Shown: piece after piece, positions 2,868-62,389 of the stretch
Layout of the letters: every line of letters starts with the position of its first letter
Position numbering within the stretch: position 1 is the first letter of the stretch
Source of the DNA: Octopus vulgaris
Lineage: Eukaryota
Reading direction: 5' to 3'
NCBI GenBank assembly: GCA_951406725.2
Contig: OX597817.1
Coordinates: 99,014,001 to 99,078,000 of the forward strand
Length of the DNA stretch: 64,000 nucleotides
Notes under the pieces: generated by a model
The model's database searches: none
What the model saw: the letters and a program-made list of their open reading frames with translations, nothing else
What the model was told of the DNA's origin: nothing
Translations under genes and position numbers: made by a program

Positions 2868-3354
2868 TTTTTTTTTTAACGTTCATTTTTGATGCATATA
2901 TAACATGCGAGTGACTATTATTTTAATTCTGAGAAATTGTTACAAGCAAAAAAAAAAAAGTGTTATACATATGATATCGTTAATTTGTTATTACAATTTA
3001 CGAGTATAACCATTGATTAAACACGATATTAATTACGATTTCTAGTTATCAGTAATATGCAAACTCACTTACCCGAGACAGTTTCCCATGCTTGATGTCT
3101 TAATGTTACGAGTATAGCACTTGTACCTACAAATCCGATAAATTCCACTGTATTATTATAATTTCGTTTCCCAAAAGACTGCTTGAGGCTGTACTATGTA
3201 GAATGCTACTTGTGAGTTGACAATGACAATATAACTATTTAGGAGTCGATACTACGACAACTATTGCCGAGTCGATAGTGTTAGTATGACAAAAGCTACT
3301 GCGAAATCAATAGAGATTATGTGACAACAGCTCCTGCGAAATCAGTAGAGACTA

Positions 3355-3768
3355 TGGTGTACAACACACAAGTGGTCGCCACCAGTAAAATGGAGAAATT
3401 ATCAGAGGACGATATCGAGGAGTGTCTAGGAAACATAACGAGGGAGGCTACTTTTATTGGCAGAGGAAGAAGATACGGCACGGTGGAGCTGAGGATTGCC
3501 ACCAAAGAAGAGCTGGCCCCACATTCCACCACCATTCTGGGGTCGAGCAAGGTAGCGCTGTTGCCCACGTATAGGGGAAGGTGCAGTGTTCGAGTTAAAT
3601 TAGCGAGAGTGCCACCCGAAATCAAAACAGAGTGATTGGTGGCAGCTATTCTGGCTGTCACTGAAGACAATCAAGAACTGGGACCGATAGGAGTGACAAA
3701 AATGTTAAACTGTTGGGGATTCGGAGTTGAGGAGTGGCTTTTTGCCACATTTGAAGACATAGATCGAA
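3355..3768 (+). pseudogene. Fragment of Tx1-type ORF1 (gag-like), inverted near-copy of 6705-7083
   Basis: YNTQVVATSKMEKLSEDDIEECLGNITREATFIGRGRRYGTVEL is nearly identical to the minus-strand ORF at 6873-7085 and homologous to RGKRYGTVEVRF in ORF1 at 57367. Confidence 0.8.
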
Positions 3769-3769
3769 T

Positions 3770-5439
3770 TATTGCACACTAGGGGCGAACATAGAAGGGA
3801 CAACACACAACATGTGGGGACACAAAGCGGGCAGAAAAAAAAGAACGTATAAAAACATGAAATGACAATGAAGAAATGAAAATCAAGTTACTCGCTCCAC
3901 CTCCGAGAAGCTTCACTTCTTTCTTACCTTAAACTCCGTTCCTTCCTGTATGTCTATTCCACACTCCTTTGTAAGGTCCGTATACAACATCTCATCTGGA
4001 AATTTACTTTTGTCGATATTTACCCTCCACATAGTCTACCCATATTGGGGTTTCTATTTTTCGTTGCCGATCTTCCGATATCAAAATGCATGCGTGTCAC
4101 CCTTTTATATTAACCTTCACTTCCATATTAACTAACATTGTGTCTTTCCACGTCATTGTGTCATCAACCAGTTTTCTATTCGAAGTGTCGTGTAACATAC
4201 ATGCAAAACAACTTTCTTCCTTGGCTGGGGGAGGGGAAGTTTGAGGATTCCTGTGTGTAAGTGCTTTCTTTTTTTGCTTTTGTGTCGGGGGGAGAGGGTG
4301 GGTTTGGTACTGCGGGGGAAGGGTGGGATTGGGAAGGTGTGTGGGGGTGGGGTGGGGTCTTAACTCTGTCTGATTCGCCTTTTACCTTTTTTGGTTTTTA
4401 TTCTCTGCAACCTTCCATGATTCGTCGTCCTTCACTTCTGTTGGTACTTCCTTCTCTGCTCTCGCTGGTTCTTCCTTGGTTTTCTCCTGGCTCTTCTCAG
4501 TTGGTGAAGGGCAATCCGCTCTGTTGTGGTCTTTCAGGCCATATTTCAAGCATCGAGGGATTCTGCGCTCCACCCTAACTCTCAACACCGCCTCCCCGAC
4601 TGTCACCGTCTCCACCATATTTTCCAGAGTCCCCACCGATCCTTGTATTATTAAATCCAAAGTTTGGCCGGCCTTTCCAATTTAAAGCTTCTGACTTAGT
4701 GGCCTGGAGGACTGCTATTTCATCCTCGTTACCCAGGAGTACAGCAGCCGCTACCCAGGCCACGTAGGTGGAATCCCCTCCACCCTCCACCCTCACCCTG
4801 GAAGCTCTCCTTCCGAGGTATGGGCGTAGAAGTACCACACTTTCCGTTCTTAGCGAGGCTGCTGAGTATTGTTTCGCCTTGGCTGCCTCTCTGAGGTGAA
4901 CCCCCACTGTGCCGAATCGGTTTCCTATTACATATCTTGCCAGATTGGTTTCAGGGCCTTTTCAATTTTATCTGTCGATATTATTTCAAATTTTCTCTCT
5001 TCAATTGAATATACTTTATAAATAATTGTTTTCTCATACATTCCTTTCATGACATCTTAGGGTGCGCGACAACTTTACATCGCCACCTTCTCTGTGCAAC
5101 ATCTGGTAATTTTTCAACATTGTTAGATTTACTTCCTTATTTTCTACTTCTGTAACTCTTGAATAACTTTTCTTATTGTCCATTTTTTTTTAATCAATTT
5201 TCTCTATTGCTCTTACGAGTTCCTCTTCCGAAGAAGACAGCCCAAAAGAGCTGTAATCCTCGTATAACATCATTGGCAACAACTGCTTCAAGGCAGCAAA
5301 AAACAGTTCACAAAGTGTTCAACACAAATTTTTCAACGATAAACAACAATTTTTAACTTACAAATGACAACTCCGTTCAATGCCGACCAATGCCTTGTGA
5401 GTGGATTTGGTAGACGGAAACTGAAAGAAGCCTGTCGTA

Positions 5440-5533
<94 letters not shown>

Positions 5534-5760
5534 TGTGTCTGTTTTTATCCCCCTAGCATTGCTTGACAACCGATGCTGGTGTGTCTACGTCCCCGCCACT
5601 TAGCGGTTCGGCAAAAGAGACCGATAGAATAAGTACTGGGCTTACAAAGAATAAGTTCCGGTGTCGATTTGATCGACTAAAAGGCGGTGCTCCAGCATGG
5701 CCGCAGTCAAATGACTGAAACAAGTAAAAGAAAAGAGTAACCCGCGAAATCAATTGAGCC
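3770..5760 (-). mobile_element. ORF1-only Tx1-derived non-autonomous element A, with a SINE inserted in its 5' end
   Basis: Decayed ORF1 (LRTESVVLLRPYLGRR, WVAAAVLL, RRIPRCLKYGLKDHNRADC zinc-knuckle remnant). It is followed by a T-rich 3' UTR ending CCCCTAGTGTGCAATAA, with no ORF2. Confidence 0.65.
5382..5740 (+). mobile_element. 5'-truncated octopus-type (OR-like) SINE with internal (TA)n(TG)n
   Basis: GCCTTGTGAGTGGATTTGGTAGACGGAAACTGAAAGAAG ... GGTGCTCCAGCATGGCCGCAGTCAAATGACTGAAAC is the same body as the complete copy at 32855-33245. Confidence 0.85.
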
Positions 5761-5761
5761 T

Positions 5762-7380
5762 CTTTTTTTTACCCACACAGGCTACAAAGAGGTGCCTTAC
5801 AATACAAAAAAAATACAAAACAAACTCGGGGAACTAAAAATTACAAAAAAGGAAATCAAGTAAAGAAGAAAAAATAAAAGAAACGAATGGAATTATGAAA
5901 GAATGATAAAAATGAAGCGCAATGCCCACTAAACCTTCGAAGTCGAGTGGTTACATTTATACATGATTTTTTTTACAGCCTTTCCCATTTTTTAAAACAT
6001 AAAATTCACATTCTCATCCTCTTTTTTTTTTCTATGCTGTTCATACGCCATTCTTGTTAGTTCCTTGTATTCCATTACAGATGGCGGAAGGTCACGTAAC
6101 CATATCCTGTCTCTCACACTTACCGATCCACCGAATGTATCCATAAATCTATCAAACCTTTCGTCCTGCACCATAATTCCTCTATCATCTCTGCTAAATT
6201 CTTCTCTGGGTAGCTTCACCCTCACCAGTCCTTTCCATTTTACTATTCTTTTTCCACCTCCGCACTTTTTGTAGACTATCAGGAATCTCTTATAATTACA
6301 TTCTTCTGTTTGCTTGTTTGTTTTTTCTCTACTGCTTGTGTATTTTTAGATTTAAGTTGTTCCCTACCTTTTTGTGGATTCTCGGTTTCTTACTTTCTTC
6401 TTTTGGGGCTAACAAACCCCTCACTCCCCTCACTCCCCTCCTTTACCTTTTTCACCTCGATCTTTTCTTTCTCTTTTGCGTCACTGACGCACTCAACATC
6501 GCTTTTGTCTTTTCTTGTTTCAGTTCTTCCTTCCATCTCATTTTCCTGTTCCTTCTCTACTTACTCTCTCAGAGCATGTTCTAACTTGGGGCACTGTGTC
6601 TTCATATAACCCCTCATTCCGCATACATAACAATTAGGTCGACGTCCCTCTACAACAACTTTCAACTTACTTTCCTCCGCAATCTCAATCTGGTAGGGGA
6701 TTCGCTCTATGTCTTCTCAACTCCGAATCCCCAACAGTTTAACATTTTTGTCACTCCTATCGGTTCCAGTTCTTGATTGTCTTCAGTGACAGTCAGAATA
6801 GCTGCCACCAACCACTCTGTTTTGATTTCGGGTGGCACTCTCGCTAATTTGACTCGAACACTGCGCCTTCCCCTATACGTGGGCAACAGCGCTACCTACC
6901 AGAATGGTGGTGGAATGTGAGGCTGGCTCTTCTTTGGTGGCAATCCTCAGCTCCACCGTGCCATATCTTCTTCCTCTGCCAATAAAAGTAGCCTCCTTCG
7001 TTATGTTTCCTAGACACTCCTCAATATCGTCCTCTGATAATTTCTCCATTTTACTGGTGGCGACCACTTGTGTGTTGTACATCACCGTCCCATCACTCCC
7101 ATCCTTTACTGCCTCCTGCGGAGGGACCAGTTTGATAGTGCCTACCTTAAGAAGTTGTTCACTTCTTAAAACCTCCTACATGTCAACTATTATGTACCTC
7201 GCTTCTAACAGCGTGGCTGCTTTCGCCCCAGCGGTCCTTGCATAGCTTTCCATGCTAGAAAAACTAAGTTTTTTTCCCATCCACAATGGGGAGAAAAAGA
7301 GCAAAAAGCAATAACAGCAGCAAATAACAAATACACGCAAGTCGCAAATAACAAACAGAAAATCAGTTGAACCCTTCACT
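5762..7380 (-). mobile_element. ORF1-only Tx1-derived non-autonomous element B
   Basis: ORF1 runs from ~7282 to the stop at 5992, with RGRRYGTVEL and a zinc knuckle (RRPNCYVCGMRGYMKTQC). The 3' UTR ends CCTGTGTGGGT plus poly(A). Confidence 0.75.
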
Positions 7381-9123
7381 TTTTTATTACCCATAGGGGG
7401 ATGAATAAAGAGGTTTTTACGGCCAAAAGGACATTACAAAACATAAAATCGGAGAAATAAAAATACAAAAGGAAAATCGAGCAAAGAAGAAAAATAAAAG
7501 AAACGAGGGAAATTATGGAAAATGATATAATGAAGCGCTATGCCCACTCGATACCCGAAATCGAGTACCTACATTTGGACATAATTTTGGACAGTTTTCA
7601 CTTCTTTTTATTTTTCCATTTTTTAAAAGTAAAAGTTCACATTTTCATCATTTTCTTTTTAAATATTGTTCATCTGAAGTTTTCCAACCTTGCATGTTCC
7701 ACCAGAGTCAGCATTGCATTAAACAACACCGGCACGTCAATCATCATCACCAATTCACGGTAAGAATTTTTTTTAAATGTCGTACCTTTCGTCGTTTACC
7801 GGCATACATCTCTCATTTTCCCTGAACTTCTTTTTGGACAACTTCACTCTTATCAAATTCTTCCACTTGGGTATCCGTTTTTCCACCTCTATACTCTTCT
7901 TATAGTAAATTATAGATCCCTTATTCCTTGTAATCCATTTCTGCTGGTTCCTCTCCACCTCATGCACAAATTTAGACGGCTCTCCACCTTTTTTTTTTTT
8001 TTTGGACGTCCTCTCAGTTTCTGCTGCTGGTCCCGGTGAGTGTTCTCTAGACTTTGCTTTCTTCCTCCTTTTGGGGCTGACAAACCCGTCACTCCCCTCC
8101 ATTGTCGCTTTCTCCTGTCTTCCTCAATATTTTCTTTCTCTTTTGCATCGCTTTTGTTATTCTTCGTTTCAGTTTTTCCTTCCATCTCCAATTCACGTTC
8201 TTTATCCTCTACTTTCTCACTCTGCGCATGTTCCCTCAGCGTATGTTCGTACATGGGGCACTTTGCTTCATATGACCCCTCACTTCACAAATGTAGCAAT
8301 TGGGTCGACGTCCTTCCACAAACACGTTCACAGAACTCTCCTCCGCAATCTCAATTTGGTAGGGGATCCTTTCAATGTCTTCAAATGTGGCAAAAAGCCA
8401 CATCTCGACTCCACATCCCCACCAGTTCAACATATTTGTTCTTCCCACTGGTCCCAGTTCCGGACTGTCTAAGGTGGCAGCCAGAATAGCTGCCACCAAC
8501 CACTCTGTTTTAATTCCGTGTGGCACTCTCGCGACTCTGATTCGAACCCTGCGCCTTCCCCTATACGTGGGTAGCAGCGTCACCTTGTCCGACCTCAGAA
8601 TAGTGGAGGAGTGTGAGGCCGCCTCCTTTTTGGTGGCAAACCTCACCTCTACCGTGTCATACCTCCTCGCTCTGCTAACAAATATCGCCTTCTTCATTAT
8701 GTCTCCCAGACATTCCTCAACACCTTCTTCTGATAACTTCTCTATGTTGTTTGTGGCGACTGCTTGTGTACACCACCGTCATATCGCTTTTATTGTTCAC
8801 TGTTTCCTGCGGAGGAACCAGCTTGATAGCGTCTCCCTCATGCACAAATTGTTCACTTCTTAGAACTTCTTCCATGTCAACCTCTATCTGCCGCTGCGGT
8901 TCTAGCATAGTTTTCTATTATAGAAAAGATAAGTTTTTCCTCATCCACAATGGGGAGAAAAACAGCAAAAAACAACAACAGCAAAGAAAACAAATACGCA
9001 CGAGACACTTCAACAATAAATTTCACAGTACTGATAACAATATCACCAGTCTCAAAAACACAACCTTCCTCTGTCAAACCGTGGTCAAAAGTGACCAACT
9101 CAAACAGCAAATCAATGGAGCAG
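7381..9123 (-). mobile_element. ORF1-only Tx1-derived non-autonomous element C
   Basis: ORF1 has RARRYDTVEVRF and a CCHC knuckle (RRPNCYICEVRGHMKQ), and its C-terminus ends ENVNF as in element B. The 3' UTR ends CCCCCTATGGGTAATAAAAAA. Confidence 0.75.
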
Positions 9124-9850
9124 TTTTTTTTATTTCCCACAAGGGGACAACACAGAAGGGGACGGCACAATCTGAATGGGGTCAGACATAACAAATGATT
9201 TAACACAATTATGAAATTAAAAATTTTACAATATATAAAAAGTTCGAATGGTGAGACATACCAAGACATTACAACTAGAGTGGGAGACAGGTTAGCCCAT
9301 TCTGCTGCCAGTTCGCATAGACATTTGCCAGCAGGTGCCCAAACAAGTCTGGCATGCTCTTATACAACTCATAGGGTAGACCATCCAGTGCCGACGCCTT
9401 ACCCACGCCGCAGTCTGCTATAACCTCAATTACCTCCTCAGGCGTGATCGGTCCTTCACAACGCCCCGCGTCCTGCACCGAGAGGCGCGGCAGCCCGGCG
9501 AGGAAGTCCGTTAGGTCCCCCCTACTGTCCGGTCCGCCCCCACCCCCACACACGAAAAGCTGAGCGAAGTGCTCCTGAAAGGCCTCACACGTTTCCTCGG
9601 GCTCGTTTATCAACTTACCTCGTTGGTTCGTCAAAGATCGAATTGTGCCATCGTTTCCACGTTGGGCTTCCACCACTCGGGCCCATCCCGCGGCCTTGAT
9701 TCCTTCACAACCCACTGCACGAAGCACACAACAAGAAACCAACTTTTACAATACCTGTAATAACAGCAATTTCAACAACACTAATCAATACCATTCACAA
9801 GCTCACAGCAAATCAATGGAATCTCTGTGGCAACAAAGGGCGTTGATCTA
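9124..9850 (-). mobile_element. Internally deleted Tx1 element D (5' end + ORF2 fragment + 3' end)
   Basis: EGIKAAGWARVVEAQRGN...LDGLPYELYKSMPDLFGHLLANVYANWQQNG matches ORF2 at 59695-60447. The 3' end is CCCCTTGTGGGAAATAAAAAAAA. Confidence 0.75.
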
Positions 9851-17807: not shown

Positions 17808-19412
17808 ACCTGGCTGGCTGGCCGGGCCTTGGCTGCCTGGCTGGCCCAGCTTAGGCTTGCTGGCTGGAAACTGGCCTAGGCTGGCTGGCAGGGCCTTGGC
17901 TGGCCGGGCTTTGGCTGCCTGGCTGGCCCAGCATTGGCTTGCTGGCTGGAAACTGGCCTGGCCGGACCTTGCTGCCTGGCTGGCCCAGTCTTGGCTTGCT
18001 GGCTGGAAACTGGCCTAGGCTGGCTGGCTGGCCTTGCCATCATGGCTGGCCTGGCCTAGGTTTGCTTGTTGGAAACTGGCCTAGGCTGGCTGGCTGATCT
18101 GGCATGGCTGCCTGGCTGGCCCAGCCTAGGTTTTCTGGCTGGAATATAGCCTAGGCTTGGTGGCTGGCCTGGCCTTGGCTGCCCAGCTGGCCAGACCTAG
18201 GTTTGCTGGCTGGAAACTGGCCTAGGCTGGCTGGCTGGCAGGGCTTTGTCTGGCTGGCAGGACTTTGTCTGGCTGGCTTGGTTTTGGCTGGCTGGGTTTT
18301 GGCTGGCTGGGTTTTGGCTGGCTGGCTGGCCCAGCCTTAGTTTACTGGCTGGAAATTTGCCTAGGCTGGCTGGCTGGCCGGCCTTGACTTGCTGGCTGGT
18401 AACTGGCCTAGGCTTGCTGACTGGCCCTGTTTTGGATGCCTGGCTGGCTGGCCAGGCTTTGGCTGCCTGGCTGGCCCGGCCTTGATTTACTGGTTGGAAA
18501 TTGGCCTAGGCTGGCTGGCTGGCTGGCCGGCCTTGACTTGCTGACTGATAACTGGCCTAGGCTTGCTGGCTGGCCCTGTTTTGGATGCCTGGCTTGCCCG
18601 CCCTTCGCTTGCTGGCTGGAAACTGGCTTAGGCTGGCTGGCAGGCCAGGATTTGGCTGCCTGGCTGGCCCGGCCTAGGCTTGCCGGCTGGAAACTGGTCT
18701 AGGCTGACTGGCTGGCCATGCCATGGATGCCTGGCTGGCTGGTCATGCCATGGATGCCTGGCTGGCCTGGCCTAGGTTTGCTGGCTGGAAATTGGCCTAG
18801 GCTGGCTGGCTAAAGGGACTCAGCTGCCTGGCTGGCCCGGCCTAGTTTTGCTGGTTGGAAACTGGCATAGGTTGGCTGGCTGGCCAGGCCTAGGAAGCCT
18901 GGCTGGCTCGGCCTTGGCTTGCTTGCTGGAAACTGGCCTAGGCTGGCTACCTGGCCCTGTTGTGGATGCCTGGTTGGCCCGACCTAGGTTTGCTGGTTGG
19001 AAACTGGCCTTGGCTGGTTGGCTGGCCAGGCTTTGGATGCCTGGCTTGCCCGGATTTGACTTGCTGGCTGGAAACTGGGCTAGGCAGGCTGGCTGGCTGG
19101 GCCTTGGCTGCCTGGCTTGCCTGGCCTAGGTTTGCTGGCTGGAAATTGGCCTAGGCTGGCTGGCCAGGCATTGGCTTGCTGGCTGGAAACTGGCCTAGGC
19201 TGGCTGGCTGGCCCAGATTTGGTTTTTTGGCTGGAACTGGCCTAAGCTGGCTGGCTGGTTGGCTGGCTGGGCCAGCCAGGCAACCAAGCCAGCCAGCCTA
19301 GGCCAGTTTCCAGCCAGCAAACTAAGGGCCGGCCAGCCAGGCATCCATGGCATGGCCAGCCAGCTAGCCAGCCTAGGCCAGTTTCCAGCCAGCAAGCCAA
19401 AGCCCGGGGCCA
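17808..19412. repeat. GC-rich (GGCT)-based minisatellite, ~60-80-bp higher-order unit, last ~140 bp inverted
   Basis: GGCTGGAAACTGGCCTAGGCTGGCTGG recurs about 20 times and switches to the complement (CCAGCCAGCC) at ~19271. Confidence 0.9.
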
Positions 19413-26386: not shown

Positions 26387-29300
26387 TCATCATCATCATC
26401 ATCATCATTTAACATCCGCTTTCCATGCTAGCATGGGTTGGACGGTTCAACTGGGGTCTGGGGAGCCCGAAGGCTGCACCAGTCCAGTCAGATCTGGCAG
26501 TGTTTCTACAGCTGGATGCCCTTCCTAACGCCAACCACTCCGAGAGTGTAGTGGGTGATTTTATGTGTCACCGACACAGGTGCCAGACGAGGCTGGCAAA
26601 CGGCCACGCTCGGATGGTGATTTTTTATGTGCCACCGACACAGGTGCCAGACGAGGCTGGCAAACGGCCACGCTCGGATGGTGTTTTTTATGTGCCACCG
26701 ACACAGGTGCCAGATGAGGCTGGCAGACGGCCACGCTCGGATGGTGTTTTTATGTGCCACCGACACAGGTGCCAGATGAGGCTGGCAAACGGCCACGATC
26801 GGATGGTGTTTGTTACATGCCCACAGCACGGAGGCCAGTTGATGCGGCACTGGCTACGGCCACGTTCGGATGGTTTTCTTGTGTGCCACGTGCCACCGGC
26901 ACTGGTACCACAAAGATACAAATTCCATTGATCTTCATCTATTTGATTTGTTTTGATTTTCACTTGCCTCAACAGGTCTTCACAAGTGTCACAAGAAGGA
27001 AGGTAAGCACAGGTGGACTGACTACGTCCCAGGTAGGGGCCACGGGTTATGGCCTGACTAGTCTTGCCGGGTCTTAGGATGGTGTTTTTATGTGCCACTG
27101 ACATAGGTGCCAGATGAGGCTGGCGAACGGCCACGATCGGATGGTGTTTGTTACATGCCCACAGCACGGAGGCCAGTTGATGCGGCACTGGCTACGGCCA
27201 CGTTCGGATGGTTTTCTTGTGTGCCACGTGCCACCGGCACTGGTACCACAAAGATACAAATTCCATTGATCTTCATCTATTTGATTTGTTTTGATTTTCA
27301 CTTGCCTCAACAGGTCTTCACAAGTGTCACAAGAAGGAAGGTAAGCACAGGTGGACTGACTACGTCCCAGGTAGGGGCCACGGGTTATGGCCTGACTAGT
27401 CTTGCCGGGTCTTAGGATGGTGTTTTTATGTGCCACTGACATAGGTGCCAGATGAGGCTGGCGAACGGCCACGATCGGATGGTGTTTGTTACGTGCCCAC
27501 AGCACCGAGGCCAGTCGATGCGGTACTGGCTACGGCCACGTTCGGATGGTTTTCTTGTGTGCCACCGGCACTGGTACCACAAAGATACAAATTCCATTAA
27601 TCTTCATCTATTTTGATTTGTTTTGATTTGATTTGATTTGATTTTGATTTTCACTTGCCTCAACAGGTCTTCACAAGTGTCACAAGAAGGAAGGTATGCA
27701 CAGGTGGACTGACTACGTCCCAGGTAGGGGTCACAGGTTATGGCCTGACTAGACTTGCCGGGTCTTCGGATGGTGTTTTTATGTGCCACCGACACAGGTG
27801 CCAGATGAGGCTGGCGAACGGCCACGATCGGATGGTGTTGTCGGTGCGGTACTGGCTACGGCCACGTTCGGATGGTTTTCTTGTGTGCCACCGGCACTGG
27901 TACCACAAAGATACAAATTCCATTGATGTTCATCTATTTTGATTTGATTTGATTTGATTTGATTTGATTTTCACTTGCCTCAACAGGTCTTCACAAGTGT
28001 CACAAGAAGGAAGGTATGCACAGGTGGACTGACTACGTCCCAGGTAGGGGCCATGGGTTATGGCCTGACTAGTCTTTCCGGGTCTTCGGATGGTGTTTTT
28101 GTGTGCCACCGACACAGGTGAGAGATGAGGCTGGCGAACGGCCACGATCGGATGGTGTTTGTCATGTGCCCACAGCACGGAGGCCAGTCGATGCGGTACT
28201 GGCTACGGCCACGTTCGGATGGTTTTCTTGTGTGCCACCGGCACTGGTACCACAAAGATACAAATTCCATTGATGTTCATCTATTTTGATTTGATTTTGA
28301 TTTTGATTTTCACTTGCCTCAACAGGCCTTCACAAGTATCACAAGGAGGAAGGTATGCACAGGTGGACTGACTACGTCCCAGGTAGGGGCCACAGGTTAT
28401 GGCCTGACTAGTCTTGCCGGGTCTTCGGATGGTGTTTTTATGTGCCACCGACACAGGTGCTAGATGAGGCTGGCAAACGGCCACGATCGGATGGTGTTTG
28501 TTATGTGCCCACAGCACGATGGCCAGTCGATGCGGTACTGACTACGGCCACGTTCGGATGGATTCTTGTGTGCCACCGGCACTGGTACCACAAAGATACA
28601 AATTCCATTGATCTTCATCTATTTTGATTTGATTTTGATTTTGATTTTTACTTGCCTCAACAGGTCTTCACAAGTGTCACAAGAAGGAAGGTATGTACAG
28701 GTGGACTGACTACGTCCCAGGTAGGGGCCACAGGTTATGACCTGACTAGTCTTGCCGGGTCTTCGGATGGTGTTTTTATGTGCCACCGACACAGGTGCCA
28801 TATGAGGCTGGCGAACGGCCACGATCGGATGGTGTTTGTCATGTTCCCACTGCACGGAGGCCAGTCGGTGTGGTACTGGCTACGGCCACGCTCGGATGGT
28901 TTTCTTGTGTGCCACAGGCACTGGTACCACAAAGATACAAATTCCATTGATGTTCATCTATTTTGATTTGTTTTGATTGATTTTCACTTGCCTCAGCAGG
29001 TCTTCACAAGTGTCACAAGAAGGAAGGTATGCACAGGTGGATCGACTACGTCCCAGGTAGGGGCCACGGGTTATGGCCTGACTAGTCCTGCCGGGTCCTC
29101 TCATGCACAGCACACTTCCATAGGACTCGGTCTTTAGTCATTTCCTTGGTGAGACCTAAAGTTCGAAGGTCGTGCTTCACCACCTCGTCCCAGGTTTTCC
29201 TGGGTCTACCTCTTCCACAGGTTCCCTCAACTGCTAGGGTGTAGCACTTTTGCACACAACTATCTTCAGTCATTCTCGTCACATGACCATACCAGCGCAG

Positions 29301-46547: not shown

Positions 46548-46579
<32 letters not shown>

Positions 46580-46583
<4 letters not shown>

Positions 46584-47182
46584 AATATGTTACATTACTC
46601 GGTAGTCAAGATAAAACTCTGAGTTTCAGATGCCGAAGTGGAAATCCACAACACCATCTCATCGGTTATCTGGCTATTTGAAAACGCTAGGAAAAAATAC
46701 CGTTAAATAAAGGGAAATTACTCTGTTATAACTCTGTTTGCCTGCGTACTTATACATCGCTCGCATTTTTCGTCATAAAAATTATATAAAAATACATAAA
46801 AAATATATAAAAATATATAAAAAATATATAAATTCTTCTTGGGACATAACATAGAAAGCATGTTCTATCTGTTTTCTTTAGGGGACCAAAAACGTAACAG
46901 AAATTTAGTCGCATGTGGGCATGATCCGAAAAGCTCTGTCCTTGTATTTAGACATGTAGTAGGGTCTAAGCTGCTTTTCCAGATAAGCCATCTCTCCATG
47001 TCGCATAGACCGCACCTTCCGCTGCCGTTGGTATAGGGCTTACATCTGGCCAAAATCTTCCATTGTATGTTATAATCGACACCTTTATCTCTTAAAGACC
47101 AAATATGATTAGATAATTGTGTCGCTTTTCTTTTGTTCCAGTGCCTAAAGCTCAAAGTGTGGTTATTGAACCTGGCCTTGAA
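46580..47182 (-). mobile_element. Inverted 5'-truncated copy of the adjacent PLE (GIY-YIG end + pLTR)
   Basis: Near-perfect reverse complement of ~49407-50010. Confidence 0.92.
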
Positions 47183-47337
47183 ATTTTTTTATATATTTTT
47201 ATATATTTTTTATGTATTTTTATATAATTTTTATGACGAAAAATGCGAGCGATGTATAAGTACGCAGGCAAACAGAGTTATAACAGAGTAATTTCCCTTT
47301 ATTTAACGGTATTTTTTCCTAGCATTTTCAAATAGCC

Positions 47338-47400
47338 AGATAACCGATGAGATGGTGTTGTGGATTTCCACTTCGGCATCTGAAACTCAGAGTTTTATCT
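47338..47400 (+). ncRNA. Hammerhead-like motif in the pLTR (copies at 46609-46671 -, 49919-49981 +, 63140-63202 -, 63215-63277 +)
   Basis: AGATAA-CCGATGA-GATG...CATC-T-GAAA-CTCAGAG-TT-TTATCT; variant core. Confidence 0.6.
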
Positions 47401-47607
47401 TGACTACCGAGTAATGTAACATATTATTGTATAGATAAATTTCCTCTATTTACATAATATTGAGGTCTCTTTCTTTCTTTTGTTATCTTACCGTTTTATC
47501 AATAAATCACCTCCCGGACGACGTTATTCTCAACTAAGAGCTAATACGGCCTTTTTGGATTATCGCTTAACATCGGTTGAGGACTCTTACACACAGAAGA
47601 ATTCAAT

Positions 47608-49725
47608 ATGGATGCATATCACATAGATTATTCTATGAAAAATATACCGATCCCATCAAAGGAATTTTACTCTAAGAAACTTCTACAGAAAATTACTGAT
47701 GTAATTAAGCGTATGAGATGGAAGGCTTTCTTTTTTGATACAGAAGCGGACACCAAGGAAAACATTTTCTATCGAATAAAATCCAAAAAATTTCCTCCCG
47801 GCTTGGAAGATTTCGAAGCGGACCTGCTGAAAATTATGAGCAAAATAAAATTTCGTAAGTCTGTTAACGATTTCCAACATAAATTGAAAAAAGATATTAA
47901 TCATATAAAAAGCTCCAAGAAAAAAGCACTTTTTTCGGATAAAACCAAGAACTTATACCTGGTAGATAACAGCAAATACACACAACTCTTACACAACAGC
48001 ATCATTAATAATTATACTAAGGCTAGGGCACAGACATATAACGAAATTAATAAAGAAGCTAGCGTCATCGCCGCTAAACTTAAATTAGATAAAAAAAATA
48101 GAAGCCCTCCCCCAAAAAGAGGCCTTTATTACTATTAAAGATCACAAAGAAAACTTCCTTTCCAACCCTAAATGTAGGCTTATCAACCCAGCCAAGTCAG
48201 AACTTGGGATTATTAGCAAAGAAATTTTAGATAAAATAAATACGAAAATTAAGACCGATACTAGGCTAGTACAATGGTCCAATAGTATAGAAGTCGTAGA
48301 CTGGTTTAAAGCCATTAAGAATAAGAAAAAAGCGAGGTTTACACAATTCGATATTGTTGATTTTTATGCCTCTATCTCTAAAGAACTGCTAGATAAAGCC
48401 CTCATCTTCGCTAGCGACTTCATAGAAATTAGTACCAATGATAAGGACATAATCTTCCATGCTAGAAAGACATTACTTTTTAGTGAGAACGCAAAGTGGG
48501 TAAAAAACACTGACACAGAGGGCGCTTTCGATGTGAGCATGGGTTCATATGATGGGGCAGGCATCTGTGATCTAATTGGACTTTTTCTCCTAGATACCTT
48601 AGGTAAGACATTCCCTAACGTACATTTCGCCATCTACAAAGATGATGCCCTCGCCTTAACAGCTAATACAAATGGACCAGCACAAGATCGTTTTAGGAAG
48701 GATATTATCCAGTTAATGAAACACTTCGGACTTAGTATAACTATAGATACTAACCTGACGGTTGTCAATTTCTTAGACGTTTCCTTAGATCTTAATAAGA
48801 ATATTTATAAGCCTTATAGGAAGCCCAATGATAGACTAAGCTATATTAATGTAGGTTCATGCCATCCCCCTATAGTATTCAAAAATTTAGTTAAAAATAT
48901 TAGTAAGAGGATTTCTAGCCTCTCCTCTGATGAGGACATCTTCAATAGCGTTGCCCCAGTTTATAATAAGGCTTTAAAAGATAGTGGTTTTAGCGAAAAA
49001 ATAAAATATACACCTATCACTAGCCCAACAGTAAGGAAAAGGAATAATAGAAATAGGAAGGTCATCTGGTTTACGCCCCTTACTCACCCGAGGTGGCCTT
49101 CAATATAGGTAAATATTTCCTAGCACTGATAGATAGACATTTTCCAGCTAACCATACTTATAGGAAACTCTTCAATAGACACAATTTAAAAATTAGTTTT
49201 AGTTCAACTACCAATTTTAAAAACATAATCAAACATAACATACAAAAAACACAACAAGAAAACAGCTGTTCATGCAGGAATAAAGAATTGTGCCCGCTAA
49301 ATGGAGCTTGCATGTCCAAGACCATCATATATGAAGCTACCGTAAACTCTATAACCACTAAAGAAACCGTTTCGACGAAGAAATACGTGGGCCTTACAGA
49401 GGGTAATTTCAAGGCCAGGTTCAATAACCACACTTTGAGCTTTAGGCACTGGAACAAAAGAAAAGCGACACAATTATCTAATCATATTTGGTCTTTAAGA
49501 GATAAAGGTGTCGATTATAACATACAATGGAAGATTTTGGCCAGATGTAAGCCCTATACCAACGGCAGCGGAAGGTGCGGTCTATGCGACATGGAGAGAT
49601 GGCTTATCTGGAAAAGCAGCTTAGACCCTACTACATGTCTAAATACAAGGACAGAGCTTTTCGGATCATGCCCACATGTGACTAAATTTCTGTTACGTTT
49701 TTGGTCCCCTAAAGAAAACAGATAG
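47608..49725 (+). CDS. PLE RT + GIY-YIG endonuclease ORF with two frameshifts (~48095, ~49085)
   Basis: KCRLINPAK, FDIVDFYASI, MGSYDGAGICDLIG, IYKDD, NFLDVSL, Cys linker CSCRNKELCPLNGAC, IIYEATV..KYVGLTE..FKARFNNH. Confidence 0.85.
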
Positions 49726-50104
49726 AACATGCTTTCTATGTTATGTCCCAAGAAGAATTTATATATTTTTTATATATTTTTATATATTTTTTATGTATTT
49801 TTATATAATTTTTATGACGAAAAATGCGAGCGATGTATAAGTACGCAGGCAAACAGAGTTATAACAGAGTAATTTCCCTTTATTTAACGGTATTTTTTCC
49901 TAGCGTTTTCAAATAGCCAGATAACCGATGAGATGGTGTTGTGGATTTCCACTTCGGCATCTGAAACTCAGAGTTTTATCTTGACTACCGAGTAATGTAA
50001 CATATTATTGTATAGATAAATTTCCTCTATTTACATAATATTGAGGTCTCTTTCTTTCTTTTGTTATCTTACCGTTTTATCAATATATATATATATATAT
50101 ATAT

Positions 50105-52045: not shown

Positions 52046-52076
<31 letters not shown>

Positions 52077-53212
52077 TTATTATATAGAAGGAACTTCTAC
52101 AGGACTAGAACTGTTTCATTCAAGAGAAATCTTCAGGAAGCTAGTTAACAAGAATTGTATTGGCATTTATACATTTAGGCAGGTTTAAAGGGGTGTTGGT
52201 GGGGGACTTTTTGGGGGTAGGCATAGCGCAAAATATCATACTTGGGGGAGTGGTCAAGGAGTCAGTGTTAAATTAGATAGAAGAATAAAAAAAAAAATAA
52301 AATAATAAAATAAAAAAATAAATAAAAAAAATAAAAAAATCTATATATAAAAAAAGGGGAATAGAGTTTTAGGTAAATAAGGAGATTCTCACTTATACCT
52401 ATGCACACATGTATACATACATACACACACATACAAACATATATACATATACATACACACATACATACACACATACATACACACACATATATATATACAT
52501 ATATATACACTTACACATACATATACATATCTACACATACACATATATGTATACATACACACACTCACATGCATACACGTATACACACATGTATATATAC
52601 ACACACGACCACACATACATATACGCACACAGAAAAATATATATACACATACACACACATACTCACATACACGCATACACACACATATCCACACACACAC
52701 ATGCACACACAGCACACTAGTCCCTATATACACATACACACACATATACACACACACACATACATATACATACATGTATATATATATATACATATATATA
52801 CATATGTGTACCTATGCATACCTACACACACACACATATATATACACATACAAATACAGACCCATTCTCTAATTTTAATTTTATTATCTTCGTTTATTAC
52901 TTTTGTTATCTTTGGCCGCTTGGTCACAAACATCTTGGCTATGACAGCCAGTCCAATTATCTGTCTACTGGAAAACAAGCACTCATTCACTCACGCACAC
53001 TCTTTAGCACGTACACTCACTCATTCGTACACTCATACACATACACGCACGCACGCGTTATATTCATACATACATACATCTACATACATTCACGTATATA
53101 CACATACGTACGCGTACCTACAGATTCATGTCTACACTCTTAGAAGGCTAGTCTATATATATACACCAATAAATATAAATACACATACATACATATACAC
53201 CTACATACAAAT

Positions 53213-53249
<37 letters not shown>

Positions 53250-53439
53250 CGCATATTCACATATACATATACACATACATACACACATACACATACACAC
53301 ACATATACATATATATACACACATACATACATACATACACACATACATACATACGTATACATACATACATACATACATACATCCATACATCACATACATT
53401 TATACACATACACACACCCACATACATACATATATACAC

Positions 53440-53480
<41 letters not shown>

Positions 53481-54200: not shown

Positions 54201-54251
<51 letters not shown>

Positions 54252-56649: not shown

Positions 56650-57061
56650 GCCGACTAACTTCTTGCGGAGCTAGTTGGCTAGGCAAAATTTTACCCCATT
56701 GGGGGTAAAATCACTGTTTAAAATATTGACATTTGCATTTTATTTCACTTACAAATTTCCAAAATGTCGTTAAAAAGAGCAGCTGGCTCTTCCCTTCTTG
56801 CAACCCCCCCCCCCCTCCACAAGAAAATATTGATTCTCCAAACCGCCCATTTCGTGCCTTAAAAGGCAAAGAAAACTCTTCGATGAAACATGTCGTTCCA
56901 AAAAAGAATGAAAATGAAAACGAAGGCGTCACTTTTGATGTCTTCGAAGACTTCCCTCCTCTTCCCTCTGCAAGCGTCCCAGTAGGGGGGAAAAGACGGA
57001 CAAAAGCAACAAAGATGGCGTCATCTTTGACGTCAATCAGAATTTTCTTTCTCTCCATTCC

Positions 57062-57869
57062 ATGAGTGCAACAGTAGGGGAAAAAGAAGAAAAGAAAATA
57101 ACAAACAGCATCACCGACAACACCACCAGCAACAACACAACAAGCCACCATAGCAATTTTGCTTCCATCACAAAAGAAAACACAGAGCAAATTCAAGTTA
57201 CATTTGACGAAATAAAATCTGCTAAGGAGTTGTTGAGAAAAGAGGAAAACAGTGTTTTCCTCAATACACCTCAACAACTCATAAACGAAACAAAAAAAAA
57301 AGAACTGTAATTTATAACGTTTTCGATAAGAAAAACAAAAAAATAACTAATGCAACACCCCAACAATTGGAAATGGCTCTTAAACCCATATGGGCCAAAA
57401 AGAGCTATGTCACAAGAGGGAAGCGTTACGGGACGGTGGAGGTTCGCTTCCCAACGGAAGACGATGCAAGGGCGCATACCATTTCGCCCTTGCAAAATGA
57501 TAATTTCTTTCTGGTCCCATCATACCTCGGGCGGAAAGTACAAAAAATTAAAATTGATATAGTACCCCCCGAACTCAGTATATCATGGCTGGTGGCGGCT
57601 GTCCTCTATGACATAGAGGACACTGCCACTATTCTAGATGTACGAAGGGTAAGAGAGAAGAACTGGTCAGGTATGGATGTTCAACTGCTGGTACAAATCC
57701 AGCAGGAAAACATTAATGCCATACCTGACTCAGTCATTTTACCAGACGGAACCAGGCTGCACGTTACTGTGGAGGAGCGAAAGCCAAAATGTTACCTCTG
57801 TAGTAGCGAAAACCACCTTAAGAAGGACTGCCCCATTCACAAAAAAAGAATGGAGGCATACGGCAAGAG

Positions 57870-57900
<31 letters not shown>

Positions 57901-58665
57901 CAACAACAACAGAAACAACAGCACGAAACACCAAAGGCTGCCACACCACCAACACCATCACCACCACCGCGACGAACGACACCACCTCCAACAACAACCA
58001 CCAAACCAACACCAACCCCAGCACCAAGAAAAACGACAACAAAAAAACAAGGAGAAACACCAACACCGTCACCATCACCAAAAGACAGCAACAACACCGC
58101 TACCAGCAAAACCAACAAAAATCTTTCACCCTGCTGATGAAGCGGACCCGACAGCCATCCCCTTTCCGGATCAGGACAGCTCGGATTGTGCGAGCACTGA
58201 TACCGAGAAAGGGGAATGGCACACAGTGCCTCCAAAGAAGAAAAGGAGGAAAAAACAAAAGGACACACAGGGGAAGCACGAACAAATAGTGCTTCCCAAC
58301 ATCAACAACAACAACATACACTCACAACAACAAACAACAACAACACTTTCGACACCACTACTGCCACTGCCACACACACCAACACACACAGACACGATTA
58401 CAGCAATAAACACAAAAGATGAAAAACTAGTTACATATCTAAAAGACAATACAAGTACACAAATTGAAGATTTCATTATACCAACACACAACACACCACT
58501 AGCACACAATCAAAATTAATCAAAAACACATAGCGAAATAAAACAAATATTCCCTAACGATGTCGGATCGCTAGGGAAAAGTTTCTCAAAGAAACTTTAT
58601 AAAAATATTATTGAAGCACCCGTGCAAAAGCACAAGGGAGCCACCCCCACCACCAACAACAGTAA
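57062..58665 (+). pseudogene. Tx1 ORF1 (CCHC zinc knuckle, polyQ and Pro/Thr linker), frameshifted
   Basis: RGKRYGTVEVRF, WLVAAVL, KCYLCSSENHLKKDC, GEWHTVPPKKKRRK. Confidence 0.8.
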
Positions 58666-58710
58666 GTAGAGCCTTTTTCTCCTTTTATTTTTTTTTCTCA
58701 CCTTTGAAAC

Positions 58711-61700
58711 GTGGCAAAACTTAGAATCGGTTGCTTGAATATGAGAGGCCTCGGGTCACCTTGGAAACAGGGTCACCTGTTAAACGACCTGAGGTTTCAT
58801 GATGTGGATGTAGCAGCCATCAGTGAAACCAGGCTCTCCGACCCGCAGGAACTCGCAGCCCTTTTCGGCGGATACGAGATATTTCTATCTCCGTGTCGGC
58901 CGGGAGCGGGCGGTGGTGGTACTGTGGTGTTGTTTCGGAAGGGCCTGGACTTGAAAATAAGGACAGTCTTCCTGGATCCGGAAGGTAAGTTGGTGGTCCT
59001 CGACGTAGACGGTAGTGACGGCGGTGCTTTCAGACTGCTGGCTGCCTACGCTCCGACAGGAGCAGGGCAGTCGGATTATTTCAAACGTCCGGAAGTTTTC
59101 CTGGGAACGTCACGCACTCTAGTGCTAGTTGGGGATTGGAACGCTGTCTTAGACGAACGTTTCGATCGGGTGGGGCAGGGAAGCGTCTGATAGGAGAGGA
59201 GGGTGCAAGAGCCTCGCCAATCTACTCGGACGCTTTCAGCTGTCCGACAGATTTCGACTAGACAACCCGAATGTGCCAATGTGGACTTGGACCAATCGCA
59301 TCGGGTCGTCTAGATCGTACTTAGATAGAGTGTTTTGTAGGCCAGCGGATAAGGATAGCATAGGGTATCCACAATTCCACATAGTCGACTACACGGACAA
59401 CAAATTCGTGATCTGTACGGTCGACTTAGATAGGCTACGTAGACAGGGACCCGGCTACTGGAAGCTGAACGCGTCGTTAACGGCGTGCAAAGCTTACAGA
59501 GACCGGATTAGTTTACTAGTTAAGCGGGCGCTCACGGGGGCAATCATCAACAACAACTGGTGGTTTGCCCTCAAGAGAGCAATTAGAGTAGAGTCGATTA
59601 GGTTTAGTAAGACTCTAGCTATTGAACGTAGGAAGAGAGAGCGGATTTAGTTAAGAAACTAGACGAGGCTCTTGAGACTGGCATCGCGACCGACGTGTTG
59701 GCGGCAAGGTTGGCCCTCGACCAACACTTTGACGCCAAACACGAAGGCTGCGTTGTCAGAGCTAAGGCACGTTCGCTAAGCGGGGAGGGGATTAGAGCCA
59801 CTCGATGGGCCCGCGTGGCGGAGGCGAAGCGAGGCAACAAAGCAACCATTCGGTCTTTGATGGACCAGAACGGGCGCAAGGTTACCGAACCGAAGCAGAT
59901 GTGTACGGTGTTTCAGCGGCACTTTTCTCAGCTGTTTGGGGTGAGCGGTGGTACGGCCAACAACGGTACAGACTTCAGTGTGTACCTGGACGGCCTACCG
60001 CGGCTCTCGAACAACGAGGCAGAGTGCTGCGAAGGACCGATATCTGCCTGGGAAGTGGAGGAAGCGATGAAGAGTTGCACGAGAGGTAGATCGCCGGGTT
60101 TGGATGGTCTGCCCTACGAGCTTTACACTTCAATGTCAGACTTATTTGCGGGCCTGTTGGCAAATGTCTACTGCAACTGGCAGCAAAACGGGAGAATTCC
60201 TGCTTTTGTCTGTCGAGGGGTGGTGGCTTTGCTAAAAAAAGGACCCAAACAAGGGGGACGTTATAGGGAATTTTCGGCCCATCACTCTGCTCAATGCAGA
60301 GTTGAAGATTTTGGCCAAGGTGCTAGCCAAGAAATTGGCGCTTGTCGTGGACAAGCTGGTTGGCAAGACGCAGACATGCGCCGTGCCGACCAGGTCGATA
60401 CACGACAACCTCCATCTCATGCGCTACATCATAGAAAGGGTGGGTAACGACGCTGGCGCGGGTGGGGCTTTGATCAATTTAGATCAGAGTAAAGCCTTCG
60501 ATAGGGTCGACCATCGGTACCTGGCAGCTGTTCTCAAGGCAGCCGGCTTCGGTCCAGTCTTCCGAGGGTGGGTCGCTGCTTTATACAGCAACATCTGCTC
60601 GGTGATACGGGTGAACGGTCACCTTTCGGAACCGTTTGACCTCTCGCGTTCGGTCCGCCAAGGATGCCCTATCTCCTCCCTCTTGTACATTTTGACTCTC
60701 GAGCCACTACTGCGCAAGTTGGAGGCTTTGAGGGGTATCCCGCGCGATCTAGGAGGCGGAAACAGCGTGTCTGCCTATGCCGAGACGACGTCACCGTGAT
60801 GGTGTCGAGCCACAGGCACATTGGCCTGATTGGCGAGACACTAAACGAGTACGAAGCGGTGACAGGGGCAAAGATTAACGCGGAAAAGTCTGTGGGCTTG
60901 CAACTGGGCACCTGGAGAAGCAAGCCCATGCCGTCCAACAGCGTCGTAGGGCGCTGGACAGACGGACCCGTTAAACTGCTCGGGGTCTGGTTCGGTCCGG
61001 ACCTCCAGGTGGATAAAAACTGGGAAGAAGTGACGAGCAGGGTGGCACGTTTCACCCAGAAATGGGCCGAGAGGAAGCTGTCCCCGAAAGGTCGAGCGGA
61101 GGTGGCGAATGCATACATCGCATCCGTCATCTATTACCGCTTGACCGTCGTCCCTTGTCCCAACCGGTGGTTGGCCAAGCTGGTACGCCTGCTCTTCGAC
61201 TTTTTGTGGAAGGGTCAGGTGCCACAGGTCAGCGATCCATCTGCTGTCAACGACCGCTGAACGGAGGCCTTGGCATGCCGTGGTTACTGATGCGCAGACA
61301 TGCGCTCAGGCTGCGATATCTCAAGCGTTTCCTAGACGGTGATCAGGTGTGGTCGTCTTTTGTCAGACGCGACTTTCCGCAGCTCGTCTCTTTGACAGAG
61401 CTGCAGACCTGGATCAAACGTAGACCGAGAAAGGGCGCTTGGCACCTCGAGTGCCGTCAAGCTCTCTCCGCCCTCCGCCAGGCGGGCAATGCGATCGGTT
61501 TTAGTTCCACTCAAGCGTTCTATAGAGGGTTAGTGGAGGGAAAATGCGACGACGTTCTCGGGGAAACTCTTCACGTTGATGATAACGAACTGAGCGATCT
61601 GTTCGGAAGGACTTTCGGGCCGGGGCCAATGGATAATTTCCAGAGGTCGCTCGCCTGGCAGTGCTACCGAGGGGCTCTGCCTGTTCGGGATAAACTCTAC

Positions 61701-62123
61701 CGGCACGGAAGTGCCGTCAGCCGGGCCTGCCCGAGGTGTTGCCAGGACGACGAAACCGTTCTGCACGCACCGGTCCAGTGCCCGAGTATTGCTGAACTAT
61801 GGGTTTATGTCGAACAGCTACTGTCGCGTATAGGACGGATCCGGCTATCAGCCGAATCCATAGTGAAGATTGCCCCACCGACAATGTGGAAGGGTCAGGT
61901 ACACACTGTGGTGAAAGAGATTGTATGGTGGACCCGTTTGAAAGGGCTAAAGTCAGACACTTTCCTCTTTGGTCAAGGCCTCATCAACTTTTTCAAGTTT
62001 CACTTGAAAAGGAAGATGAGGTTAGAGAGGAGAGCGCTGTCCGATAGCAAGTTTTCTGAAAGGTGGGTGAATTGTGCGAGAATGGCCAGTATAAATGGAC
62101 CAATTCTCAGGTTTCGCCTGTGA
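58711..62123 (+). pseudogene. Tx1 ORF2 (APE endonuclease + RT + C-terminal Zn finger), with several frameshifts and stops
   Basis: LNMRGL, ISETR, GDWN, SYLDR, GPGYWKLN, SPGLDGLPYE, LDQSKAFDRVDH, VRQGCPIS, a frameshifted YADD, CPRC..ETVLH...C. Confidence 0.92.
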
Positions 62124-62389
62124 TTGAAAAAGGTTTTATAAAAGGAGAAAAGGGCTCTCTACCCCCTTTTTTGACCAGGCTACCGTTGGCTTTTATGGGT
62201 TTTTTCCACCAGGAACCTTTCGTAACGCCTCCCCCTTTTGGGAGATTTTCATTGTTATAATCTTTCGTTGTTGAACTGTTTTTACTCGGATTTTTTACAA
62301 ACGGACAAAACCCTTTGTAACCTTTCGTCCTGTTTTGTCCCTTTATGTTTACTAATCATGTGTGTCAGCCCTTGTGGCCAATAAAAAGA

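Follow-up and report, generated by a model that had tools for sequence, protein, structure and literature searches.

Three decayed elements, A, B and C, which lie close together on the minus strand of the window (the whole 64,000-nt stretch of Octopus vulgaris DNA analysed), are very probably old copies of genome-wide elements that encode ORF1 only. They represent two deep octopus lineages whose ORF1 was under selection, and ORF2 was presumably provided by complete relatives.

Structure of the elements in the window

The following features were located.

3339..3770, plus strand: inverted piece of ORF1 directly beside the 3' end of A; over 380 nt it is 94% identical to B
3770..5380, minus strand: element A, decayed ORF1-only, clade II; leader, ORF1 N-half at ~5183-4501, C-terminal domain at ~4216-3924, 3' UTR, poly-A truncated at 3770
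5382..5740, no strand assigned: repeat plus microsatellite between A and B, outside the elements, with matches elsewhere in the window
5741-5762 and 9804-9821: motifs similar to the TSD of C, bounding the D-C-B chain
5763..7352, minus strand: element B, decayed ORF1-only, clade I; ATG at 7253, N-half up to 6575, C-terminal domain at ~6291-6053; the family leader is incomplete, with ~100 nt missing at its 5' end
5921..5958, minus strand: conserved 3'-UTR palindrome/hairpin of B, a clade I signature
7353..7371, minus strand: downstream TSD copy of C, at the C/B junction
7381..9100, minus strand: element C, decayed full-length ORF1-only, clade I; mutated start codon at 8918, N-half up to 8242, C-terminal domain at ~7922-7676
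7539..7575, minus strand: conserved 3'-UTR palindrome/hairpin of C
9101..9119, minus strand: upstream TSD copy of C, at the D/C junction (score 26; 3.8% of control pairs reach 24)
9124..9803, minus strand: element D, derived from the autonomous family Auto2, of which it has the T-rich leader, a piece from the middle of ORF2 and the 3' UTR; head of the D-C-B chain
56650..62388 (start approximate), plus strand: autonomous ORF1+ORF2 LINE of family T, followed by (ATT)n

A, B and C share the same layout, a T-rich leader, an ORF1 remnant, a 3' UTR of 150-300 nt and an A-rich end; tblastn detected ORF1 in each of them and ORF2 in none. The first-pass annotation had described them as ORF1-only elements, which agrees with this layout, but their ORF1s are broken and a perfect CCHC knuckle is present in none of the three. 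Compared with family majority sequences over the N-half and C-terminal segments, the damage amounts to 6 frameshifts and 3 stops in A, 6 and 2 in B, and 4 and 1 in C (3-6 frameshifts per copy overall). The start codon of C is mutated to ATA.

With 72% nucleotide identity over 1001 columns, B and C belong to one family group, and A represents a separate lineage. Because A is parted from B by ~380 nt of microsatellite and a repeat which we take to be SINE-like, only D, C and B form a chain. The inverted fragment next to A is likely the product of a local inversion-duplication. The ORF2 fragment of D is closer to the ORF2 of Auto2 (72% at the amino acid level) than to that of family T (55%). The deletion in D was found at one locus only, and D was rejected as a family: 39 of 40 other matches covered only the ORF2 piece, and the remaining one added a separate 3' piece.

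Dispersed copies and insertion marks

The junction between ORF1 and 3' UTR recurs at other loci, contrary to the single-locus deletions that the first-pass annotation had named as a refuting result. Eleven loci were colinear with C from ORF1 through the 3' UTR in one piece, with 66-72% identity (40 of 253 candidates scored), and seven were colinear with A (40 of 305 scored). The annotation had also considered that other copies might continue into ORF2; no endonuclease was detected downstream of the C-terminal domain at any of 70 loci, window B included. At one locus (L067) a C-terminal ORF2 piece lies 60 nt behind the C-terminal domain. Since inspection was limited to top-scoring candidates (150 listed of 11,737, with ~20 regions fetched), autonomous elements carrying an ORF1 of clade I or II might exist as rarities. 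The class of 58 of the 243 ORF1 cores could not be assigned. L199 and L211 had been labelled ORF1-only automatically but are both autonomous, and L134 consists of an Auto2-type ORF1 on its own.

TSD scores of at least 24 were obtained for 11 of 28 near-full copies, as against 3.8% of mismatched control pairs; the other 17, among them window A, fell below this threshold. A 300-nt repeat serving as target was uninterrupted at 17 of 20 sampled sites, and at three it carried a poly-A-ended insert at the same base. The insertion site in this repeat adjoins 13 of 52 3' ends of the A and C families. The ORF1-only structure at many independent loci, the lack of ORF2 between ORF1 and the 3' end, and the marks of retrotransposition (poly-A end, TSD, empty target) identify these sequences as ORF1-present non-autonomous LINEs.

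Selection on ORF1

In the N-half of C (33 copies) omega was 0.18 for substitutions shared by at least three copies and 1.43 for private ones. The corresponding values were 0.28 and 1.26 for the C-terminal domain of C (30 copies), and 0.15 and 1.17 for the N-half of A (16 copies), with Fisher p values between 4e-7 and 4e-34 for the contrasts. Third codon positions accounted for 64-69% of the shared and 28-31% of the private changes. Between families omega was 0.08-0.17 at dS 1.3-1.9. Taking into account that shared substitutions are mostly synonymous and private ones neutral, these values show that ORF1 was selected while the elements spread, in agreement with the purifying selection expected in the first-pass annotation. 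Together with the clade structure described below they indicate that ORF1 was kept by selection after the loss of ORF2, the C-terminal domain of A alone not being significant (p = 0.2, 10 copies). For the copies in the window, decay followed insertion, which a rough calibration puts at no more than about 17-25 My ago.

The ORF1 protein and the 3' UTR

The only Pfam match to ORF1 was zf-CCHC, and its named relatives were octopod proteins with a CCHC knuckle. Octopus proteomes contain false CCHC gene models that are in fact ORF1-only elements. The structure model of the full-length protein was poor (mean pLDDT 48), that of the C-terminal domain good (pLDDT 86). In structure searches this domain matched nothing more specific than the alpha/beta plait in general (best Z 6.5, rmsd 4.7, 80 aligned), and Foldseek returned nothing at E 0.001. 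The predicted layout consists of an RRM-like core, a CCHC knuckle, a charged linker and an alpha/beta-plait C-terminal domain, and ORF1p is likely an RNA-binding protein.

HHalign matched the C-terminal domain of C to that of young families with probability 92. Clade I and clade II domains matched with probability 73 (the clade II alignment including one out-of-frame row), compared with 19 or less against autonomous ORF1s; a remote relationship between the domain and the C-terminus of autonomous ORF1s is possible (probability 19, E 0.001). B and C had been reported to share a C-terminal domain ending in ENVNF. The domain is shared, but ENVNF was rejected as the end of the protein: the underlying ATGTGAAY is a 3'-UTR motif 33-63 nt beyond the domain. 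Of 16 copies, 6 have this motif in the reading frame, and in 2 of these no stop codon intervenes; it also occurs 3' of the stop codon in an intact young family. Clade I families at dS >1.2 have a 3'-UTR hairpin in common, for which no match was found among the autonomous loci compared.

Phylogeny

In the ORF1 tree the 31 ORF1-only rows formed two well-supported clades (99/97 and 97/97) with no autonomous row inside, and the five autonomous families fell outside both. The final tree contained 43 of 94 rows, picked after a quick tree; L199, L134 and noisy rows were left out. B and C belong to clade I, A to clade II. Thus the proposal of one long-lived lineage was right as to old families under selection, but the tree contains two deep lineages.

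Candidate donor LINEs

The 3' ends had been likened to that of the LINE ending at ~62,388, to which they proved only weakly similar (6-12 of 45, global score). With this tail match the 57-62 kb element (family T) was a poor candidate for the main donor and was rejected. Against Auto2, the tails of A and D scored 23-32 of 45 and those of B and C 9-18; the A majority tail reached 32, young tails 37 and the C-family tail 18. The donor is probably not the 57-62 kb element, and Auto2, the family of the neighbouring D, appears to be the better candidate. No ORF2-bearing element, and hence no candidate donor for B and C, was found beside the main old target (0 of 27).

ORF2 of the parent LINEs contains Exo_endo_phos, RVT_1 and zf-RVT, and its better match to L1 ORF2p (E 3e-63) than to R2 (1e-24) places it in the L1 group. 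An APE-RT-zinc-binding ORF2 of this group and the target-sequence preference are as in the Tx1 clade, to which the parents likely belong; a homologue search returned no Tx1-labelled reference.

Young relatives and arrays

Young relatives of B and C have intact ORF1s of 466-493 aa in units of 1.78-1.93 kb. The 493-aa ORF1 was intact at 7 loci, and 9 compared units of that family were 95-98% identical. Young units also form head-to-tail arrays of up to 22, adjoining an autonomous LINE with the same last 45 nt; the 22-unit array terminates in an autonomous copy. Array units were 97-99.9% identical (median 98.9% both within arrays and between contigs), and most contained a frameshift. Both the window and the arrays of C7, C1 and C22 lie at interstitial positions (e.g. 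C7:100.09-100.13 Mb of 128.6 Mb). A few matches lie near contig ends. No marks of RNA editing were found in 35 young array units (A>G 19, G>A 23, C>T 15, T>C 7). A young family was covered by contigs from runs only guessed to be RNA, which is no evidence of expression.

Mechanism and origin

The observations comprise the shared structure, the TSDs, the empty and filled target, the selection on ORF1, the two clades, the intact young kin and the tail shared with an autonomous family. Beyond these, we infer that ORF2 is borrowed in trans from a putative autonomous partner, to which the shared tail and the adjacency of young families point only indirectly. A master copy would be transcribed, and its RNA likely coated in cis by its own ORF1p. 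The ORF2p of the helper would then likely recognise the last ~45 nt of the RNA, nick a preferred site inside other repeats and copy the RNA. As the duplication would regenerate the target site, later insertions could line up one behind the other in the same orientation, the arrangement seen in D-C-B.

The same elements could be explained if every ORF1-only family had arisen separately, by a recent internal deletion in an autonomous parent now extinct or unsampled, the selection signal coming from the parents. Such deletions do occur here, as D shows, only five autonomous families were sampled, and Drosophila telomeric elements lose ORF2 repeatedly according to the available part of PMC13534243. 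However, this would require every one of dozens of parents to be missing, no autonomous row falls within either ORF1-only clade, and clade I families as distant as dS >1.2 share both the C-terminal domain and a hairpin that gave no match in autonomous loci; we regard this explanation as unlikely. Purifying selection and the related gene models in octopus proteomes would also fit processed copies or duplications of a domesticated, L1TD1-like host gene derived from ORF1, but a host gene is very improbable given the neutral decay of copies once inserted and the large number of diverged families, which have LINE-type tails and a target preference and occur in chains mixed with autonomous LINEs. 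Hardly any weight can be given to single-locus deletions combined with DNA-level tandem duplication. Local rearrangement is evident from the inverted copy of B, and unequal exchange may have partly enlarged the young arrays, whose units are nearly identical; yet these units are as alike between contigs as within an array, B and C are too diverged, each has closer or equally close kin elsewhere, and TSD-like junctions lie between them. For A, B and C the dispersed colinear copies and TSD scores already contradict it.

Within the preferred reading of old, trans-mobilized ORF1-only lineages, a single origin of both clades was not rejected by the AU test (p-AU 0.17), which was not blind. This value, the greater likeness of the two clades' C-terminal domains to each other than to autonomous ones, the B/C-type domain in O. 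bimaculoides-labelled proteins, and the Auto2-like tails on ORF1 cores of clade II (A) and young clade I that are only ~35% identical suggest a more speculative reading, which we consider possible but rather doubtful. All octopus ORF1-only families would descend from one ancient ORF2 loss predating the O. bimaculoides split, would have radiated into many families outnumbering their helpers at some targets, and would survive by swapping their 45-nt recognition tails at the 3' end, thereby following whichever autonomous LINE is active.

Discussion

Mammalian HAL1, known from several lineages, derives from L1 and encodes ORF1p only (PMC5753468; available part of PMC5786205). The octopus elements are likewise non-autonomous derivatives of an L1-group LINE with multiple lineages, but HAL1 belongs to the L1 clade, whereas they have a CCHC-knuckle ORF1 akin to that of octopus L1-group (likely Tx1) LINEs, a preference for sites within other repeats and head-to-tail stacking. 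They do not originate from mammalian L1-clade elements and are HAL1-like in working only. HeT-A and other ORF1-only telomeric Jockey elements of Drosophila, as presented in passages of PMC13534243 and PMC5786205, also form head-to-tail arrays with autonomous partners, and their ORF1-only lineages spawn further families. These elements are telomeric and of the Jockey clade, whereas the octopus arrays examined are interstitial rather than telomere-specific, have TSD-like junctions and serve no evident host role. Ag-Sponge is a similarly bipartite ORF1-present non-autonomous LINE, but derived from CR1, and the available text of PMC5786205 states no targeting or arrays for it. Tx1 of Xenopus and Tx1-Mar/SINEU of crocodilians resemble the octopus system in targeting other transposons, in having a non-autonomous partner at the same target and in tandem insertions sandwiching a TSD (passages of PMC4494074); the partners described there are non-coding SINEs, whereas those in octopus code for an ORF1 that has been under selection.

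Full-text literature searches turned up neither ORF1-only Tx1 elements nor elements of this kind in cephalopods, although supplements, repeat libraries or Repbase could hold them; the available parts of the cephalopod repeat papers PMC13282606 and PMC8967140 do not mention ORF1-only elements. The 2018 classification, in the part available (PMC5786205), lists ORF1-present non-autonomous LINEs from three clades only, Jockey, L1 and CR1. If a site-preferring L1-group/Tx1-type LINE gave rise to a large radiation of long standing, its clade would be the fourth, and HeT-A-like ORF1-only lineages and arrays would be known outside telomeres as well. Old fossils such as A, B and C provide evidence over deep time for continued selection on ORF1 in the absence of ORF2, and their intact young kin make the question why such elements keep their own ORF1 testable in cells.

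The ORF1-only elements belong to dispersed families

The following features make up the cluster in the window.

about 9803-9124, minus strand: element D, heading the row of elements
9100-7381, minus strand: element C, ORF1 by tblastn
7352-5763, minus strand: element B, ORF1 by tblastn
between B and A, about 380 nt: SINE-like repeat and microsatellite
5380-3770, minus strand: element A, ORF1 by tblastn
3339-3770, past the 3' end of A: ORF1 fragment in inverted orientation, with 94% identity to B
5921-5958 and 7539-7575: 3'-UTR palindrome

With the ORFs of the autonomous LINE at 56650-62388 (family T) as tblastn queries, ORF1 was found in A, B and C at 23-34% amino acid identity and, among the four elements, ORF2 in D only. 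The ORF1s of A, B and C are all broken, and the named proteins nearest to them bear octopus labels. B and C are 72% identical across 1001 columns; A gave no nucleotide match to either. D is a deletion derivative of the lineage of Auto2, another autonomous LINE family.

A, B and C are not local deletions but members of families. Searching the octopus genome with the DNA of C yielded 71 matches, and 11 other loci aligned with it from ORF1 through the 3' UTR in one piece at 66-72% (40 of 253 candidates scored); with A there were 66 matches, seven of them single-piece alignments from ORF1 to the 3' end (40 of 305 candidates scored). The junctions of ORF1 with the 3' UTR recur at many loci, the point that the first-pass annotation had proposed to test. 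Majority sequences built from 36 (C) and 23 (A) extracted copies, some overlapping loci being counted twice, gave a near-continuous ORF1 for both families. In the restored elements an N-terminal core is followed by a CCHC knuckle, a low-complexity linker, a C-terminal domain some 85-100 aa long and the 3' UTR.

The C-terminal domain of B, used as query, was found at 148 places (150 scored). Seventy such loci (the top 30 and 40 selected remote ones) were inspected for copies continuing into ORF2, and in no case did an ORF2 endonuclease lie in the 1.5 kb downstream, in agreement with the ORF1-only structure first suggested. A C-terminal ORF2 piece was fused at the 3'-UTR hairpin in a single case (L067), which is better read as a truncated insertion. 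The strict tail pattern was present in 30 of the 70 loci and, by eye, many remote families among the loci listed carry variant tails.

Other repeats in the window include two tandem arrays.

17810-19258: 71-nt GC-rich tandem array
26554-29097: 338-nt tandem array containing a 63-nt sub-repeat

In an element at 46569-50021, the frame at 47581-49725 is RT-like and GIY-YIG-like, and the element's own end recurs as a 617-nt inverted copy (100%); the structure resembles that of Penelope-type elements. At 52075-55375, DNA rich in CA/TA microsatellites makes up most of a large inverted repeat, which is nearly perfect and has arms of about 1.2 kb (89-98%).

Target sites

Flanking duplications scoring at least 24 were found in 11 of 28 near-full copies, compared with 3.8% of mismatched flank pairs. 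C is among the 11; A has no duplication at this threshold, and its 3' end adjoins the inverted fragment. Of 52 A/C-family 3' ends, 13 adjoin a single site close to where a 300-nt interspersed repeat ends, smaller groups adjoin SINE-like or MITE-like motifs, and 28 were left unclassified by target. The host repeat terminates in a hairpin followed by TT, an end that recalls Helitron/Helentron-type elements, of which it is a candidate member.

The 32-nt pattern of the main target site had 97 exact matches (0 in the control). When 20 sites were fetched, 17 were uninterrupted and three were interrupted at an identical base by an insert ending in poly-A. In a donor check, upstream of 27 sites preceded by a polyadenylation signal there was a clear match to ORF1 or the C-terminal domain in 19 cases, a weak one in two and none in six; ORF2 was found upstream of none of the 27.

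Young relatives and candidate autonomous partners

The ORF1 core of C as protein query gave 11,737 candidates, with many long open frames among the top 150, and in the fetched regions there were ORF1-only families with intact frames of about 466, 476 and 493 aa, the last intact at seven loci. In one array, 22 units of 1775-1785 nt precede a complete Auto2, which also terminates several shorter mixed chains; two chains have autonomous DNA upstream. The whole 466-aa frame is present in only one of the 22 units, the remaining breaks being real or assembly errors. Along this array (L126-L129, G000:C7:100.087-100.127 Mb) the sequences of the inter-unit junctions shift stepwise, a pattern as from sequential insertion.

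Over the last 45 nt the young families reach a score of 37 of 45 with Auto2 and of 8-10 with family T; on the same scale the majority tail of A scores 32 and 12, and that of C 18 and 11, respectively. Family T precedes (ATT)n and, at the three loci fetched, chains with itself only. It is young and abundant, with at least 150 endonuclease matches (91-100%), in many of which a 1145-aa ORF2 is open, and forms its own head-to-tail chains of 5.87 kb. Contig depth over the common 3' tail (L143:3731-3827) exceeded that over the neighbouring ORF several hundred times in three of four runs and about 70-fold in the remaining one; by this poor measure, tail-bearing elements may be far more numerous than the families seen.

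The 3'-UTR palindrome common to B/C and the young families had 55 distinct variants among the loci examined, and its degenerate pattern gave 186 exact matches (0 in the control). Across clade I, the ORF1-only lineage containing B/C, its conservation is far above that of synonymous sites. The palindrome may act as a signal in the RNA or as a promoter element of the following unit; in HeT-A a promoter element serves the next unit.

Phylogeny and selection

We labelled 243 ORF1 cores (redundancy included) by downstream content: 147 ORF1-only, 38 autonomous and 58 unknown. Two ORF1-only clades were recovered in a quick tree (94 rows) and again by IQ-TREE from 43 selected rows. Clade I (99/97) comprises B/C, remote families and the young families of 466-493 aa, and clade II (97/97) comprises A and others; five autonomous families fall outside the two. 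The tree requires two changes, and grouping all ORF1-only rows together was not rejected (p-AU 0.173). The C-terminal-domain profile of B/C matched the young families with probability 92, A with 73 and autonomous ORF1s weakly, with 19. The domain of B is confidently predicted to fold as a beta-alpha-beta-beta-alpha-beta plait plus helix, and structural comparison of this model found no specific relative. By eye, P0019 and P0023, proteins labelled O. bimaculoides, end in a B/C-type domain. P0023 combines a clade II-like core with a C-terminal domain like that of clade I, whether through inter-clade recombination or as a gene-model artefact.

To test for selection, we projected each copy onto the majority ORF of its family and binned changes by the number of copies sharing each. 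Private changes were neutral (omega 1.2-1.4; 28-31% at third positions in the N-halves). Changes common to at least three copies were under constraint, with omega 0.18 for the N-half and 0.28 for the C-terminal domain of C, and 0.15 for the N-half of A, with 64-69% at third positions in the N-halves. Site counts in omega take no account of transition bias, of which the third-position contrast is independent. Between families omega was 0.08-0.17 (dS 1.3-1.9). Purifying selection on ORF1 was borne out, save that in the C-terminal domain of A the shared versus private contrast did not reach significance (0.58 vs 0.34, p = 0.2). Terminal branches of the three window copies are 0.06-0.09 (family medians 0.09-0.11); by the calibration in the part of PMC13282606 consulted, where JC 0.09 equals about 25 My, their age has a rough upper bound of about 17-25 My.

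Proposed mechanism and relation to known elements

Established LINE biology, the shared tail and the adjacency of the elements suggest how they might move: ORF1p would coat its own RNA, a helper ORF2p would recognise the tail and prime at the target, whose regeneration would permit insertions to stack. The parent LINEs are likely Tx1 members. A literature search found no published description of the octopus system, though supplements and repeat libraries may contain one.

In passages of PMC5786205, the non-autonomous LINEs retaining ORF1 are HeT-A (Jockey), HAL1 (L1) and Ag-Sponge (CR1); according to sections of PMC13534243, telomeric Jockeys lost ORF2 repeatedly and form small ORF1-only clades; and in portions of PMC4494074, Tx1 elements and their SINE partners use other transposons as targets and insert in tandem. 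The octopus system unites these traits. In structure, dispersion, target-site duplications, target, selection, clades and shared tails it is real and well supported; it works like HAL1 and HeT-A but belongs to neither.
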